Shown here: piece after piece, positions 1,963-17,979 of the stretch
How positions within the stretch are numbered: position 1 is the stretch's first letter
Layout: every line of letters begins with the position of its first letter
Virus record (IMG/VR): IMGVR_UViG_2526164689_000024
DNA length: 19,202 bases
Source of the DNA: a virus
Taxonomy: Duplodnaviria > Heunggongvirae > Uroviricota > Caudoviricetes
Reading direction: 5' to 3' (one strand)
The notes under the pieces: generated by a model
Told to the model about the DNA's origin: nothing
The model's input: the letters and a program-made list of their open reading frames with translations, nothing else
Database searches by the model: none
Position numbers and translations under genes: made by a program

Positions 1963-4506
1963 TTAAAAATCAGCCTGACTCGGGATCAGTTTTTGCCAGA
2001 TAACTGAAACGTATTTTGCCTGGTAACGGGCGTCATCAAGTGCATTATGGCGCTCACCTTCGAATGGAATAGCCGTTCTGGCATCGAAGTCTATGGCTTT
2101 CCCCAGCTCAACGATTGTGCGTACATCGCGATCGTTGTAGTAACGCCACGGGCAGGGGATCCCCTGCCGTTCGTATGAACGGCGCAAAATCGTGTTGTCG
2201 AAGTTGGCTCCATTTCCCCAGACCTGAACAAAAAATTCACCGGAGTTTTCGTCGATAAATTCCCGCAATTGTAACAGTGCATCATCTAACGGGATTTCAT
2301 CGGTCATAATGGCAGATTGCGCTTCGCGTGATTGCTTAAGCCACCATTTAATGGTGTCCCGATCAATGACTCCGCCAGCAGTTTCCAGATCGATAGTCTT
2401 ACTAAATTCCGGTCCCATATCTCCGGTTTGCGGATCGAAAAATATTGCACCTATTGAGATGATCGGGGCATCAGGATTTTTTCCCATGGTTTCAAGGTCG
2501 ATCATTAGATGGTCACACGTCCTGCTGGTGGATGTGATTTCACGATGACTGTTCACCTTAATTAAGAGATTTGCTGTCTCGCCTGTTTCATTATTGCCAT
2601 TGGCATGTTGATCGCCTTCGGTGCACTCCTTGTTCGGGAGTCCGGCACTTTCCATTTCCTCCGGATCTTTTTCCCGGGCTTCATCCTGGCTTTCTTCGTT
2701 GAATGTCTCCTGGTATGTTGCGTCGCCCATCACCGCGCCACAGTCAGGACAGTTGCCGCCGCCGGTCTGACCGCAGTCTGTGCAGACTTTTTCCGGTTCC
2801 TGTTGCGCTACTGGTTCAGGCTTTTTCGTTTCTGGCTCGTTTTGTTGCGCATTTGGACTGTGTTGTTCCGCTTTATGGCCTTTCTGTTCCGTTTCTTGCT
2901 GGTTATGGTTCACCGAATCGCGGGTTTCAATCCCCTTCACCCATTTTGGATCATTCGGGTCGCTAATCCCTTCAACAAATTCTCCGTGAGAAGCAGCCAG
3001 TAATTTATCTGCATCGACAGGATTTTTGGGTGGAATGTTTTTCCTGGCTTCATAGAGTTCTGCACGCAGTTTCTGATATTTCGCATCAACAGAATTTATC
3101 TGTGGCTGAGCATCCATCGACTGCGTGTCCTGATTATGTTCAGTTGTATCCGGTTCCACTGCTTCAGTCGTTGCCTGTTCATCTGCCATTGCGCCAGATG
3201 GCTGCGGTTTTTCTTCATCATCCTGTTTTCCTTCTTTTGTTACACGCTGCGGGATAGGGGCAGAGGAGCGACCGCAGGCAATATCCACGATTTCCGGATC
3301 AGGGTTGGCATGATCGGTTTCGGTCAGTACTTTGTTCAGATATTCGGTAACACGGTGGGGAGTAGCCTCGATACCAATTGGTGCTTCTTTCACGGACGCA
3401 ACTACTATCGCGCGGGAATAATCCAGGTGACCAGGCATGGCGATGAATTTGTCACGAAAAACAGAAAAGGGCGGCTTATTCTCTGAAACGATTTCTTCAA
3501 TGCGTTTGGCGTGTGCCGGATGTGGATTGTAAATATCGATGTCCATTGAACGGGCCAGAACGCCAGCGGCAACGTCACGTTCCACTGACGCATCATCGTG
3601 GACAAAACCTTCACCGCGATCGGTAAGAATTCCTCCGCCAGCATTAGCGCCGGACGGGGTGCGATTGATTTCAGATACGCAATTTCCCTTTGCCCACTCT
3701 TTTGTCAACAGCCCCTGATCAAGGTAGTCAGTCTTCATCCAGGTGGAAATGAACTTGTCGAATTCTGCCGGGCTGATACGGCGTGTTGTTGCGTGAGTGA
3801 ATGCCTTTTCCACCGAATGCGCCAGTCTTCCAAGATGATGGTTTGTCAGCTTATCCAGCTCAGGATGCGAACGTACTGCAGTAAGCAGGCTCTGTATGTT
3901 TCCATCTTCCATATCCATTTCGATGCGGATCACGTCCTTGCGTTGTTCTGGTGTGGCGTGATGTTTGTATTTCTCGTCGAACTCCTGACCAAAGAAGTAG
4001 AGGTGCAGGAAGCGATGGGTAAGACTCAGGGTGGAGACGGGGATTTCACATTCAGGGCAGTCATCGTTGCTGTCCGGGGATTCGCTTTTATCTGCGTTCT
4101 CTGTCTGAGAGTCACTTTGTTCATCGCAGTCACGGCTGACACCTGTAACAGCTTCGCCGCTGGTATTGTCAGTGCTGGCTGGTTTGTCCTGAACTGAGGG
4201 GGAAGGCGCTATAAATATCATTGTGATGCCATCTTCTCCGCCTTTTTCATAGCGGTTGCAGAATTCGGTATCAAACACACCTTCAGGCGGCAGGTCATTA
4301 ACAATGGGCAAATTCACGCGAACAGGTTTTTTGAAATCCTCTTCGTCAAATCCAGCATCGTCCATTGCGACAACACCCCGTGATATTGCAACCGATAATT
4401 TTTTTGCTGTGCGCCAGTAAAAACCGCCTTTAATCCCAAGGCGTTTTCTGACTTTGTCATTTTTGGCTTCGTAATACAGTGCAATTTCTTCTTTATCAGT
4501 GCTCAT
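1963..4506 (-). CDS. large early-left-operon protein with C-terminal DnaQ-like DEDDh 3'-5' exonuclease domain
   Basis: 847 aa; C-terminal motifs HLMIDLET (Exo I D-x-E), WGNGANFD (Exo II), H-x4-D in [11 protein letters not shown] (Exo III); internal [16 protein letters not shown] zinc-ribbon-like motif and long acidic/Gln-rich linkers; sits where lambdoid phages carry exo/recombination genes. Confidence 0.6.
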
Positions 4507-4598: not shown

Positions 4599-4793
4599 TT
4601 ATCCAGCCGGTATTTCGTTATTCAGGTACAGCGATACTTTGTTTAACGGGAGACATTCACCGGAAATTTTTTGCTCGTCTCTTGCCTGATGGCAGGATTC
4701 TTTACTGGCATAAATTCCGGTAATCACATTCTGTGATTCACCCGTTATAAGAAAAACCGTCATCACCAGTGCAAATGCTGAAGTCATTGACAT
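4599..4793 (-). CDS. ydfD: YdfD-like small protein with N-terminal signal/TM segment (Qin-type lysis protein family)
   Basis: 64 aa; MSMTSAFALVMTVFLITGES...NNEIPAG resembles recalled E. coli YdfD; immediately downstream of the dicB-like gene as in Qin. Confidence 0.55.
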   Translation of the reverse strand: MSMTSAFALVMTVFLITGESQNVITGIYASKESCHQARDEQKISGECLPLNKVSLYLNNEIPAG

Positions 4794-4972
4794 TCTCCGA
4801 AAATACCAAGTTCAAGAAGGGCAATTCTGGAGAGTATGGAATTATCATTGAGAAGATAAGGCTCATATTTTCTCATCTTAATGGCATCTTCAGTAAACTC
4901 CCGGTTACTGAGCAGAATACCAATATCAAAACACCCTTCAGACGTATTAACGTTTGGTAGTGACGTTTCCAT
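4784..4972 (-). CDS. dicB: DicB-like cell division inhibitor
   Basis: 62 aa; METSLPNVNTSEGCFDIGILLSNREFTEDAIKMRK matches the recalled DicB N-terminus (..LPNVNTSEGCFEIG....FTEDAINKRK); same length as K-12 DicB. Confidence 0.7.
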   Translation of the reverse strand: METSLPNVNTSEGCFDIGILLSNREFTEDAIKMRKYEPYLLNDNSILSRIALLELGIFGECQ

Positions 4973-5155
4973 TATCGCGTCCTCAACAATGAATTTTGTT
5001 GATGCGGCGCCTGGTGCCTCCAGGTGACGTTAACCAGTTAACAATTAACGTCGGAATACAGAAGGATGCCCGTTGCGCCCCGTAAAATACCACTTTACGG
5101 TTTTAACTGTTCCGCGTGCGCATAGCCGCATTCACCGCATCACAAAATTCACTTT

Positions 5156-5212
5156 AAAAAGGGCGGACATCAGTCAGCAACAAACCGATGCCGCCAATGG
5201 GTACACCACGAG
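5156..5212 (-). ncRNA. dicF: DicF-like small RNA (boundaries approximate)
   Basis: minus-strand RNA AACCUCGUGGUGUACCCAUUGGCGGCAUCGGUUUGUUGCUGACUGAUGUCCGCCCUUUUU ends in a GC stem plus U5; shares blocks UUGGCGG / AUC.GUUU / UGACUG / CCGCCCUUUUU with the K-12 DicF sequence as recalled; lies between the ydfA-like and dicB-like genes. Confidence 0.5.
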
Positions 5213-5361
5213 GTTGCACTGGCTACACAACCGGAAGCGCACGGTCGAAGAAATTTAACGACAAGACTTATATGCAAAGAAACCTCTCCGTGCGCTTTCG
5301 TGTTATGCCATGACTTTTCAGGGTACATTAACCTGTGGAAACCTGTTTTTACTGGCGCTAA

Positions 5362-5514
5362 TCAGTTGGCGTTTCTGGCTAACCAGCGATGCGCGCCAGC
5401 TTCGGTTTTAAACGTTTTACTTTTGGTATACGTCATCGCGGTAAACGTGCCGTCCTGATTGGGGAAGACGCCGCACACCAGAGATTCGTTGTTGCCAAGA
5501 TCGATGGTATCCAT
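5362..5514 (-). CDS. ydfA: YdfA-like small protein (DUF1391)
   Basis: 50-aa ORF not in the track (below its length cut-off), hand-translated: MDTIDLGNNESLVCGVFPNQDGTFTAMTYTKSKTFKTEAGAHRWLARNAN; SD GAGG 6 nt upstream; first gene downstream of the repressor as in Qin dicA-ydfA. Confidence 0.6.
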   Translation of the reverse strand: MDTIDLGNNESLVCGVFPNQDGTFTAMTYTKSKTFKTEAGAHRWLARNAN

Positions 5515-5689: not shown

Positions 5690-5742
5690 AATATAAGAAT
5701 ATTTAGTTTTTCCGTCAAGTTGAATATAAATATTTTTAAGAT
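5690..5742 (-). promoter_or_regulatory. PL-like leftward promoter with adjacent operator-like motif
   Basis: minus strand -35 TTGACG (plus 5713-5718), 17-nt spacer, -10 TATATT (plus 5690-5695); 23-bp AT-rich motif at 5720-5742 nearly identical to one at 6449-6470. Confidence 0.35.
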
Positions 5743-5787: not shown

Positions 5788-6432
5788 CTAGAGGCTGAAC
5801 TGAACACCTTTTGCTACAGCAACGATGTTACATTCCGGTGTAAGTAAGGATGATTGATAGCGTGGGTTAAGGGGGGCTAAGTACACGAGCTTTCCATCAA
5901 TAACTAATTTTTTTATAGTCATGGATGGTTCGTTTGTGAGTGGATCTGGGACTATTACTGCGACGATGCTACCATTTTTATATTTTTCGCCAGGCCTCAT
6001 GATCACTGTGGCTCCAACTGGAATGCTTGGGGACCCTGATGGATTGTGCATAGTATCATCAGGCATTGAAACGGCAAAATCTCCCTCCTTGACATCAAAG
6101 AATGTGGTGATCCTGTCGACATTTCCCATAGTTTTCTCTCCTTTTAATATTAGGAAAGAAATCGCTTCTCCCCAAGAAAGGTATGGGATTTGGATACCTG
6201 GATTTTTCTGCACAAGGGATGATTCAGGTGATGATACTCCATACAGGAGATAGGACTCAGTAGTGCCTAGTGCTAGGGCTAATTTACTAAGAGCTTTGCT
6301 ACCTGGTTCGTTTAGATCTTTCTCCCAGTATCCTATTGTTACCCCAGTTACGCCAGAAAGCTTGCCAAGTTCAACTTGGGTCAGACCTTTGTCTTTTCTG
6401 AGTTTCTTAAGCCTAATGCCAAGGCTTTCCAT
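5788..6432 (-). CDS. cI: CI-type phage repressor (N-terminal HTH_XRE plus C-terminal S24 LexA-like autopeptidase)
   Basis: 214 aa; HTH LTQVELGKLSGVTGVTIGYWEKDLNEP; C-terminal FAVSMPDDTMHNP (Ser nucleophile context) and MTIKKLV (Lys), parallel to lambda CI GNSM / FTFKKL; divergent from the cro-like gene. Confidence 0.9.
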   Translation of the reverse strand: MESLGIRLKKLRKDKGLTQVELGKLSGVTGVTIGYWEKDLNEPGSKALSKLALALGTTESYLLYGVSSPESSLVQKNPGIQIPYLSWGEAISFLILKGEKTMGNVDRITTFFDVKEGDFAVSMPDDTMHNPSGSPSIPVGATVIMRPGEKYKNGSIVAVIVPDPLTNEPSMTIKKLVIDGKLVYLAPLNPRYQSSLLTPECNIVAVAKGVQFSL

Positions 6433-6530
6433 TATTTTCTCCCGCGAATTGAATATAAATTATTTTAGATTGTATTGACCTAAAAAAATTACCCTTTAAT
6501 CTAAAAATACTTAGTTTTAAGGAGGGCGAA
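6433..6530. promoter_or_regulatory. divergent immunity control region (OR-like) with PR-like promoter
   Basis: 98-bp AT-rich intergenic region between cI and cro starts; rightward -35 TTGACC (6475-6480), about 16-nt spacer, -10 TAATCT, SD AAGGAGGG before cro ATG 6531; operator-like motif 6449-6470. Confidence 0.45.
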
Positions 6531-6758
6531 ATGCGAGTTGATGAACTTGTCCAGTTTTTTGGTTCTGTCCAAAGAGTCGCTGATTTTTATGGGGTAACCC
6601 GAGAAGCTATATACATGTGGCGTAAGCGTCCCGGCGAAATAGTTCCCAAGGGGAGGGCTGCTGAAGCAGTTGCATACTCCAAGGGAAAATTATCGTTGAA
6701 CCCAGAACTTTACAAAAAGAAGGATAACACCTCGAACGAAAGGAAAAATGATTCATGA
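6531..6758 (+). CDS. cro: Cro/DicC-like small HTH regulator
   Basis: 75 aa; FFGSVQRVADFYGVTREAIYMWRKRPGEIVPKGRAAEA resembles lambda Cro and recalled DicC; strong SD; divergent from the repressor. Confidence 0.75.
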   Translation: MRVDELVQFFGSVQRVADFYGVTREAIYMWRKRPGEIVPKGRAAEAVAYSKGKLSLNPELYKKKDNTSNERKNDS

Positions 6759-7180
6759 AAATCAAGCATGAACACATCCGCATGGCGATGAATGCCTGGG
6801 CGCATCCGGACGGCGAAAAAGTACCGGCTGCGAAAATTACCAAAGCGTATTTCGAGCTGGGGATGACGTTCCCGGAACTGTACGACGACAGTCATCCGGA
6901 AGCCCTGGCCCGTAATACCCAGAAAATTTTCCGTTGGCTGGATAAAGACACCCCTGATGCTGTTGAAAAAATTCAGGCTCTGTTACCAGCGATCGAAAAG
7001 GCGATGCCGCCTTTGCTGGTGGCCCGTATGCGCAGCCACAGTTCTGAGTATTACCGTGAGATCGTCGAACGGCGGGATCGGCTGGTGAAAGATGTCGACG
7101 ATTTTGTTGCGTCAGCGGTTGTTTTGTATGACCAGATGAATCGCGGCGGCCCGGCAGGAAATGCCGTGGTGATGCACTAA
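6755..7180 (+). CDS. YdaT-like protein (proposed CII-type regulator / toxic when overexpressed in Rac)
   Basis: 141 aa; N-terminus MKIKHEHI and length match recalled Rac YdaT; start overlaps cro stop (ATGA), implying translational coupling. Confidence 0.45.
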   Translation: MKIKHEHIRMAMNAWAHPDGEKVPAAKITKAYFELGMTFPELYDDSHPEALARNTQKIFRWLDKDTPDAVEKIQALLPAIEKAMPPLLVARMRSHSSEYYREIVERRDRLVKDVDDFVASAVVLYDQMNRGGPAGNAVVMH

Positions 7181-12127: not shown

Positions 12128-12343
12128 GGTAAAAACGGTTTGCGGTAAAGCGAGAGTTAAGTAGAATTGCTGCGGGTGCTTGAGGCTATCTGCCTCAGGC
12201 ATGAACACCAAAAGGCAGATAGAGAAAAGCCCCAGTTAACATTACGCGTCCTGCAAGACGCTTAACATTAATCTGAGGCCCAATCTATGTCTCACAAATG
12301 TAGGTTAGCCTCTTACGTGCCGAAAGGCAAGGAGAAGCAGGCT

Positions 12344-12499
12344 ATGAAGCAGCAAAAGGCGATGTTAATCGCCCTGATCGTCATCTGTTTAACCGTCATA
12401 GTGACGGCACTGGTAACGAGGAAAGACCTCTGCGAGGTACGAATCCGAACCGGCCAGACGGAGGTCGCTGTCTTCACAGCTTACGAACCTGAGGAGTAA
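12344..12499 (+). CDS. hokD: Hok/Gef-family type I toxin (HokD/RelF-like)
   Basis: 51 aa MKQQKAMLIALIVICLTVIVTALVTRKDLCEVRIRTGQTEVAVFTAYEPEE, matches recalled K-12 HokD; an in-frame upstream ATG at 12287 would give 70 aa; leader contains a 10-bp inverted repeat. Confidence 0.8.
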   Translation: MKQQKAMLIALIVICLTVIVTALVTRKDLCEVRIRTGQTEVAVFTAYEPEE

Positions 12500-16676: not shown

Positions 16677-16752
16677 CGGCCCTTTAGCTCAGTGGTGAGA
16701 GCGAGCGACTCATAATCGCCAGGTCGCTGGTTCAAATCCAGCAAGGGCCACC
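16677..16752 (+). tRNA. tRNA-Ile2-like (anticodon CAT, probably lysidine-modified; Met cannot be excluded)
   Basis: cloverleaf parsed by hand: acceptor GGCCCTT/AAGGGCC, D-arm GCTC-AGTGGTGA-GAGC, anticodon loop CTCATAA, T-arm GCTGG-TTCAAAT-CCAGC, CCA encoded; very similar to recalled E. coli ileX. Confidence 0.8.
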
Positions 16753-16853: not shown

Positions 16854-16930
16854 GCGTTGTTAGCTCAGCCGGACAGAGCAATTGCCTTCTAAGCAATCGG
16901 TCAGTGGTTCGACTCCACTACAACGCGCCA
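16854..16930 (+). tRNA. tRNA-Arg (anticodon TCT, reads AGA/AGG)
   Basis: cloverleaf parsed by hand: acceptor GCGTTGT/ACAACGC, D-arm GCTC...GAGC, anticodon stem ATTGC/GCAAT with loop CTTCTAA, T-arm AGTGG-TTCGACT-CCACT, CCA encoded. Confidence 0.8.
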
Positions 16931-17695: not shown

Positions 17696-17862
17696 TTTTT
17701 TTGTTTGCTGTTTATTAAAAACACTTCTGCATGGTGAATCCCCCTGTGCGGAGGGGCGATCAGCAACCAGGTATATGGGATAATCGCGGATTTAGGTGCT
17801 GATACTGAATTCACCGGGAGGCACCCGGCACCATACAAGAAAAAGAATGTGCATGCAAACAT

Positions 17863-17886
17863 GCCCCTCTCCGGAGGGGCTTTTTT
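17863..17886 (+). terminator. strong rho-independent terminator
   Basis: GCCCCTC-tccg-GAGGGGC 7-bp GC-rich stem followed by T6. Confidence 0.8.
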
Positions 17887-17979
17887 ATGGGTAAAAAATG
17901 CCCGAATGGGTTCGGGCAATAGCATGAGATACTGATATTGTTGTGTTGTTATCGTGTGGATTTTAACCAGGGTTTATCA

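Follow-up and report, generated by a model that had tools for sequence, protein, structure and literature searches.

Introduction

DicF (Rfam family RF00039) belongs to the few prophage small RNAs (sRNAs) known to affect the division and metabolism of the host and, in enterohaemorrhagic Escherichia coli (EHEC), its virulence. In the RNA of the K-12 Qin prophage, nucleotides (nt) 4-15 pair with xylR and nt 31-54 with ftsZ and manX, and the DicF9 mutation, which disrupts pairing of the 3' region with the ftsZ ribosome-binding site (RBS), abolishes regulation (PMC5069750). An RNase III cut in K-12 yields a 190-nt DicF precursor, and transcripts reading through into dicB were not detected (bioRxiv 10.1101/2023.04.14.536235). 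Several near-canonical dicF copies are known in EHEC (PMC5069750; PMC7873438), including DicF_1-4 in EDL933 (PMC5331693). The published figure on dicF conservation used sequences that were more than 99% identical (PMC5069750), and divergent alleles therefore lie outside its scope. Here we analyse a DicF-like element on the minus strand of IMG/VR virus record IMGVR_UViG_2526164689_000024, a stretch of 19,202 nt that we call the window.

A preliminary description of the window had proposed a reduced Qin-type dicB operon carrying a DicF-like RNA with a possibly altered target set. Our comparisons, which rest on sequence, show a rare divergent DicF allele that has kept the terminator hairpin and has both pairing regions replaced, and that therefore probably regulates different host genes. 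The reading that we favour, at a probability of roughly 0.6, is that of a DicF homologue with two roles, the attenuating terminator of its operon and an sRNA whose target set has changed, one rare allele of a mosaic family.

A DicF homologue at the dicF position

In E. coli O111:H11 strain 8D, a lambdoid prophage adjoining potC is 100% identical to the window. Gene starts and names were taken in part from the RefSeq record identical to the window, and domains were assigned with Pfam. On the minus strand, a repressor gene is followed by a YdfA-like gene, a 149-nt gap, the DicF-like element, dicB and a YdfD-like gene, the order given in the preliminary description. The features from ydfA onwards are as follows.

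5362..5514, minus strand: ydfA-like gene, DUF1391, 50 amino acids (aa), first in the operon (Pfam 102.7 bits; gathering score 27.3)
5361..5213, minus strand: non-coding gap of 149 nt between the ydfA-like gene and the DicF-like element
5226..5308, minus strand: long conserved hairpin within the gap (minimum free energy (MFE) fold, window and K-12)
5196..5225, minus strand: 5' tail (module D) of the DicF-like RNA, UAGCCAGUGCAACCUCGUGGUGUACCCAUU (sequence comparison with K-12)
5156..5195, minus strand: terminator hairpin, GGCGGCAUCGGUU-loop-GACUGAUGUCCGCC followed by C and U5, with the UUGCUG module (module III) in its loop (terminator scan, Rfam, model R1)
4995..5149, minus strand: STnc100-like part of the structured dicF-dicB spacer, which measures 183 nt overall (sub-threshold RF02076)
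4784..4972, minus strand: dicB homologue, 62 aa (Pfam DicB PF05358, 118.3 bits; gathering score 27; residues 1-62, full length)
4599..4787, minus strand: ydfD-like gene, DUF1482, 62 aa from the RefSeq start (Pfam 55.9 bits; gathering score 25)

The YdfA-like protein shares 44 of 51 residues with K-12 YdfA, and the DNA is 88% identical, including about 38 nt of the 5' untranslated region (BLASTN). The DicB homologue shares 36 of 62 residues with its K-12 counterpart, its N-terminal half being conserved and its C-terminal half diverged, and the YdfD-like protein shares 29 of 63. According to RefSeq the ydfD-like gene starts at 4787, not 4793, which leaves a 4-nt overlap with the dicB stop, as in K-12.

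We searched the window with the Rfam DicF model, whose gathering score is 48 bits, and obtained no DicF match at that threshold. A permissive scan aligned the full model (1-52) to positions 5209..5161 with 29.0 bits (E=6.8e-4 in a 1.5-kb search). Judged by the refuting condition that the preliminary description itself had set, the lack of a DicF model hit, the element thus falls short at the curated threshold, and its family membership rests on synteny, homologous flanks and a broader model. In BLASTN comparison with K-12 Qin, 83% identity extends from DicF nt 14 (TTGGCGG) through the spacer into dicB, and the flanks on both sides of the element align at 82-88%. We then built a covariance model (R1) from 15 alleles, with the window and K-12-type sequences excluded; its calibration was shortened and its E-values are rough. 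Model R1 gave 62.8 bits at 5156-5210 on the minus strand (E=3e-16), the sole match in the window below E=1, and it found K-12 dicF with 36.2 bits (E=2e-8) exactly at the annotated 2883-2940. Because the position is the same, the flanks are homologous and the broader model matches both the window and K-12 dicF, we regard it as secure, as judged by these comparisons, that the element at 5156-5225 (minus strand) is a DicF homologue at the DicF position, although the curated threshold is not reached.

The terminator and several sequence blocks, which the preliminary description had listed as retained, are indeed kept: K-12 has the same hairpin base, GGCGG/CCGCCC, and the same U5 run, and differs in the 5' 13 nt and the loop. 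A terminator scan placed the hairpin with a CGCCCTTTTT tail at 5192..5166, with 13 bp followed by U5, and the MFE of the hairpin is -22.0 kcal/mol in the window versus -15.9 kcal/mol in K-12. A 52-aa open reading frame that overlaps the RNA (5170-5328, minus strand) was considered as a gene and rejected, as it has no Pfam match and its K-12 counterpart is non-coding and hairpin-forming.

Predicted pairing with DicF targets

The segments that differ from K-12, the 5' 13 nt and the loop, match the nucleotides with which K-12 DicF pairs with xylR and with ftsZ and manX, as the preliminary description had suspected. We scored pairing with 22-nt sliding duplexes and opening energies, using 37 unrelated leaders as background; full-length duplex prediction was set aside for its unrealistically long duplexes with large loops. 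The method recovered the K-12 sites (xylR +11..+20 with nt 4-15, manX +35..+53 with nt 35-54, ftsZ -28..-7 with nt 31-52). K-12 DicF scored -11.8 to -13.8 kcal/mol on xylR, manX and pykA, a value matched by none of the 37 background leaders. The window RNA reached -6.7 to -7.5 kcal/mol on the same three leaders, not above background, and over ftsZ, xylR, manX and pykA together 6-12 of the 37 background leaders scored as well as the targets did, so that none of the four stood out. The scoring is crude, since even the validated K-12 DicF-ftsZ pairing falls within background (7/37). The loss of ftsZ pairing therefore rests mainly on two other changes, the replacement of the anti-Shine-Dalgarno motif ACUCCG by UUGUUGCUG in the window RNA and a drop in ftsZ hybridisation from -21.9 kcal/mol in K-12 to -13.9 kcal/mol. 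Because both known pairing regions, the xylR 5' seed and the ftsZ/manX loop and 3' region, have been replaced, the window RNA is expected to leave ftsZ, xylR and manX free of the repression that K-12 DicF exerts and to have other mRNAs as its targets. The differing target set envisaged in the preliminary description thus finds support in the background-level pairing predicted for these four leaders. When the 85-nt RNA was scanned against the whole window on both strands, some 800-880 matches below -13 kcal/mol were found per strand, and only the self-antisense one stood out; we accordingly propose no target in cis or elsewhere in the phage.

We considered whether the element might still be DicF in function, repressing ftsZ and blocking division through an alternative pairing, with the sequence change being neutral. 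The best ftsZ duplex of the window RNA involves the loop region GUUUGUUGCUG, with 10 pairs (4 of them G-U) at about -28..-19 of ftsZ, a stretch that K-12 DicF also contacts, and the division inhibitor DicB is still encoded in the same operon. However, this duplex lies upstream of the Shine-Dalgarno sequence and spares both it and the start codon, its accessibility-corrected score (-3.3 to -4.5 kcal/mol) is within background, and the ACUCCG motif, which in DicF belongs to the 3' region that pairs with the ftsZ RBS, is absent from the window RNA. We consider retained DicF function improbable.

The gap hairpin and proposed RNA processing

The gap of roughly 150 nt in the preliminary description has the right length but is not empty. 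It contains the hairpin at 5308..5226, whose K-12 counterpart (2658-2757 of our K-12 Qin locus, L001) is 82% identical over 100 nt (BLASTN) and sits downstream of ydfC. Across 18 diverse loci the hairpin has 18 consensus pairs, and compensatory double changes occur in three of these. The 3' arm of the K-12 hairpin ends 177-183 nt ahead of the DicF 3' end, a distance that fits the 190-nt precursor, and the hairpin thus coincides there with the RNase III site from which that precursor arises. By analogy, RNase III would be expected to cleave the gap hairpin in the window prophage as well.

From the end of the hairpin motif (...GCTTCCGG) to CCGCCC the distance is 64 nt in the window versus 177 nt in K-12. 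About 110 nt are thus missing relative to K-12, the RNase E site included, and where K-12 has a spacer, the RNase E site and the seed for xylR, the window has module D. RNase E trims K-12 DicF to its 53-nt form. A test for the RN|WUU motif alone found none in the window tail and one in K-12, exactly at the DicF 5' end. If the window RNA is made, RNase III would probably bring it to a length of about 70-85 nt, with no trimming to a 53-nt form.

These elements can be assembled into the mechanism that we propose. Inactivation of the CI/LexA-type repressor would permit transcription from a PL-like promoter near 5690 through ydfA, RNase III would cut the conserved hairpin at 5308-5226, and most transcripts would end at the strong intrinsic terminator at 5195-5156. 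The RNA released by termination would be about 70-85 nt long, with the DicF hairpin and U-tail as a 3' end of the Hfq-binding type, and the transcripts that read through would express dicB, ydfD and the recombination genes. Termination is a real function of the element in K-12, because no read-through into dicB has been detected there. The preliminary description also held that the RNA and the DicB and YdfD homologues are toxic and would be unleashed on derepression; a stable RNA and such toxicity are carried over from K-12 and may apply here by analogy.

A mosaic family of DicF alleles

To place the window element we scanned IMG/VR with a conserved 29-mer that starts in the 3' side of the hairpin, which returned at least 120 loci. 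Among the matches listed, the DicF position holds at least 32 distinct sequences, at least 28 of them full-length. Across the alleles listed the hairpin base and the U-run are constant, and the variable parts fall into about five classes of 5' tail (A-E) and about six of loop (I-VI). The tail and loop combinations are A+I (K-12), A+V (a copy in EDL933), D+III (the window), B+II, B+III, B+IV, C+III, C+IV and E+III. Tail D was found only with loop III, in six identical IMG/VR contigs. In a MAFFT alignment of 28 alleles (A1) the 3' stems of the K-12 type were one column out of register, and this alignment was not used for counting pairs. With Rfam the K-12 type scores 68.6-76.7 bits. Nine other alleles were scanned, of which eight score 28.6-43.5 bits and the ninth (L112) had no DicF match at all.

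Might the element act in cis only, as a terminator or attenuator and RNase III site that limits expression of dicB, ydfD and the recombination genes from PL, with its tail and loop unconstrained? In its favour, invariance across alleles is limited to the hairpin base, U-run and flanks, and in one allele (L017) no more than a minimal 6-bp hairpin is left. The terminator hairpin of the window is also more stable than its K-12 counterpart, K-12 termination is real and occurs without detected read-through into dicB, and no target rose above background either in the leaders or in the window scan. Against this stand the discrete modules, which recur nearly unchanged, tail B being combined with three loops (II, III, IV) and loop III with four tails (B, C, D, E), and which are therefore not expected under free drift. 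Moreover, canonical DicF, of like architecture, is a trans-acting Hfq-dependent sRNA (PMC5069750), and the Hfq-type 3' end is intact in the window. We judge a purely cis-acting role, the main rival of our reading, rather unlikely.

Several points nevertheless weigh against a DicF homologue with a second, trans-acting role. The allele-conserved hairpin base, U-run and flanks are the parts that a pure terminator or processing site needs, and the variable tail and loop could simply be unconstrained. We infer, for the window RNA, its transcription, processing, Hfq binding, trans-regulation and targets. The Rfam score lies below the gathering threshold, and the target scoring is crude enough to leave a validated pairing within background. 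Finally, the allele is rare and all its copies are identical, and selection on the seeds therefore cannot be assessed; the identical block in a second background, UTAK-6 (see below), looks like a recombination segment and not like evidence of purifying selection.

We searched 5,426 complete E. coli genomes for the 86-nt allele of the window and found it, with at least 99% identity, in 11, every copy being the same. The K-12 type is found in 3,974 of the same 5,426 genomes, in up to seven copies per genome. The window 5' tail has no match among the GTDB species representatives, and the allele appears to be confined to E. coli prophages outside the representative genome of the species. In strain UTAK-6 the allele and the gap hairpin are 100% identical to the window, whereas the repressor/operator region differs by 16-18%. 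Two or more immunity backgrounds thus carry the allele, which comes from Cuban, Russian and US isolates, and its identity in UTAK-6 despite the diverged repressor and operators indicates that it moves between immunity types.

This distribution also bears on the idea of a decaying remnant, in which a deletion took the RNase E site and the 5' seed from a once-canonical dicF and the locus is heading to loss. The tail can be read as the K-12 sequence with an internal deletion, GCAAC..CUC..UGGUG..UUGGCGG being kept, and the allele is rare. But the terminator hairpin and its U-run are intact, as are the RNase III hairpin, the spacer and dicB, the same short architecture recurs in three other alleles (L004, 63 nt; L121, 68 nt; L049, 76 nt), the loop module III (UUGCUG) is common to four other alleles, and the allele occurs in two or more immunity backgrounds and three countries. 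Decay is therefore a very improbable account.

The recurrence of modules suggests a bolder extension of the DicF-homologue reading, one that is conceivable but that we hold only tentatively: the dicF position could be a two-module seed cassette in which tail and loop are swapped between phages. The window would then be the rare D+III allele, processed by RNase III only and having given up the four validated DicF targets for others. Recombination may take place at the invariant junctions UUGGCGG and CCGCCCUUUUU, with conserved flanks. If so, K-12 DicF would merely be the commonest allele, and each prophage would deliver its own set of host-mRNA targets on induction.

Further alleles and their annotation

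The A+V allele of EDL933 (L123; NZ_CP008957.1 1847260-1847308), located upstream of a dicB copy, is chimeric, with the K-12 seed UUUCUGGUGACGUUUGGCGG and a differing loop CAUCUGUUUGCCCAUGAACUGAUG. Its predicted xylR pairing is kept (-11.9 kcal/mol). An IMG/VR locus (L009) carries the same allele and scores 43.5 bits with Rfam, below the threshold, and the EDL933 allele may be an uncounted fifth DicF-type RNA in EHEC.

L017 (IMGVR_UViG_2541047124_000012) has a K-12-like tail UUUUCUGGUGAUUC fused to the minimal 6-bp terminator GGCGGAAAUGGAUAUCCGCC, without the ftsZ-pairing loop. Two loci without dicB and ydfD, L025 (5482-5964, B+II) and L042 (4732-5215, C+III), carry a DicF-like element and an STnc100-like spacer followed by isrK (59.6-62.7 bits) and the C4 antisense RNA (73-77 bits). 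From this layout, a DicF-type module therefore also heads an operon of the P1/P7-style C4/antirepressor type.

Perfect copies of canonical dicF (ecoli_genomes H86-H90) had no RefSeq feature in any of the five rows shown, and copy numbers therefore cannot be read from those annotations. We had considered a missing RefSeq annotation under the variant alleles as a sign of divergence, and dropped it, as canonical dicF is equally unannotated.

Genomic setting

Upstream of ydfA, the window has the following features.

5788..6432, minus strand: CI/LexA-type repressor, 214 aa (Pfam HTH_3, 45.4 bits, and Peptidase_S24, 41.6 bits; LexA family protein in RefSeq)
5718..5690, minus strand: PL-like promoter TTGACG-17-TATATT (promoter scan, 10/12 matches to sigma-70)
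5690..5738, minus strand: operator-like repeats overlapping the PL-like promoter, recurring in the repressor-cro intergenic region 6432-6520; an operator function is suggested by this arrangement

The intergenic region that holds the PL-like promoter is AT-rich, and the divergent gene opposite the repressor is P22-Cro-like. The direct repeats pair 5703-5738 with 6432-6467 (D1, 78%) and 5690-5710 with 6498-6518 (D2, 86%). The sequences common to the left and right immunity intergenic regions are TTGAATATAAAT(A/T)TTTTTA and AATATAAGAATATTTAGTTTT / AATCTAAAAATACTTAGTTTT. The repressor has the S24-type motifs with Ser (VSMPD) and Lys (IKKL). Its expected Ala-Gly self-cleavage region, inspected by eye, reads LSWGEA, and RecA-dependent cleavage of the repressor is therefore not certain.

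ydfB and ydfC had no match in the window, either by BLASTN against K-12 Qin or by tblastn, in line with their reported absence. Where DicF is canonical, 29 loci carry ydfA-B-C and at least nine carry ydfA alone; the absence of ydfB and ydfC is thus ordinary. Beyond the ydfD-like gene lie an 847-aa RecE-like exonuclease gene and then xis and int. Because int, xis and the RecE-like exonuclease are present in the left arm, the region looks like the leftward early operon of a lambdoid prophage with an apparently complete left arm, and not like a Qin-like remnant. The gene order of the preliminary description holds good, but its label "reduced Qin-type" says too much for a lambdoid leftward operon with int, xis, a RecE-like exonuclease and an S24 repressor in place of DicA, and the ydfA-only layout is common with canonical DicF too.

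The dicF-dicB spacer and other RNAs of the window

The dicF-dicB spacer is about 85-90% identical to K-12 (BLASTN) and matches RF02076 (STnc100) with 29.8 bits over part of the model (22-154), below the gathering score of 47. Of 11 further loci, 10 have a similar match of 24-40 bits directly 3' of the DicF position, K-12-type loci included (L006, L105, L009, L113, L101, L025, L065, L042, L004 and L112). Between the window and K-12, pairing in the closing helix of the spacer is kept through one-sided changes. A conserved structured RNA, distantly akin to STnc100/PasD, may therefore precede dicB; with the true STnc100 of the window the spacer shares just short motifs. The remaining features that we noted are these.

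17700-17892, plus strand: STnc100, full length (Rfam 140.3 bits)
17893-17954, minus strand: AgvB, an anti-GcvB sRNA, end to end with STnc100 (Rfam 96.5 bits)
16678-16750 and 16854-16927: two tRNA genes, about 0.8 kb upstream of STnc100
12174-12349, plus strand: sok antitoxin RNA (121.7 bits); the hokD toxin gene is annotated in the identical RefSeq record
1963-4506, minus strand: 847-aa exonuclease with an N-terminal Exonuc_VIII (RecE) match and a strong C-terminal Rv2179c-like 3'-5' exoribonuclease domain (226 bits)
6755-7180, plus strand: YdaT-family "toxin" gene, after the P22-Cro-like gene as in Rac-type immunity regions

The sok/hokD pair, tRNA genes, STnc100 and AgvB are typical of prophages of Shiga toxin-producing E. 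coli.

Discussion

Since the Rfam threshold catches only the K-12-type allele (none of the nine others scanned reaches it, an extra EDL933 copy among them), the DicF-type repertoire of pathogenic E. coli has been under-counted, and statements of the type "four copies in EHEC" take in near-canonical sequences only. Should the swapped tails and loops function as seeds, prophages that share a host would differ in the post-transcriptional signal that each sends to it on induction. If they are non-functional, the conserved job of DicF in most phages would be termination and processing ahead of dicB. Faubladier and Bouche reportedly noted dicF-related sequences in several prophage-like regions in 1994. 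Seed-swapped DicF alleles were not described in the literature matched by a full-text search for "DicF-like".

Among known systems, K-12 Qin DicF occupies the same place as the window element, with the ydfA side before it and dicB after it in an operon under repressor control, and the spacer that follows and the RNase III-type hairpin that precedes are common to both. The window differs in its longer and more stable terminator hairpin and in its CI/LexA-type repressor, in place of which Qin has DicA. Compared with the dicBF operon of Qin (ydfABC-dicF-dicB-ydfDE), the window keeps the order of ydfA, the dicF position, dicB and ydfD together with the 4-nt overlap; it is without ydfB and ydfC, and its operon continues into a full-length RecE-like exonuclease gene, xis and int. 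The sub-threshold alleles of other prophages, such as that of EDL933, share the 3' side of the hairpin, CUGAUGUCCGCCC, with the window, but the EDL933 allele retains the K-12 5' seed and the predicted xylR pairing, whereas the window allele has neither. A parallel is offered by PasA/PasC and PasD/STnc100 (bioRxiv 10.64898/2026.05.13.724894), which are different RNAs at different loci, in a study from which DicF is absent, and which, like the putative window RNA, are prophage sRNAs of pathogenic E. coli whose variants have differing seeds.

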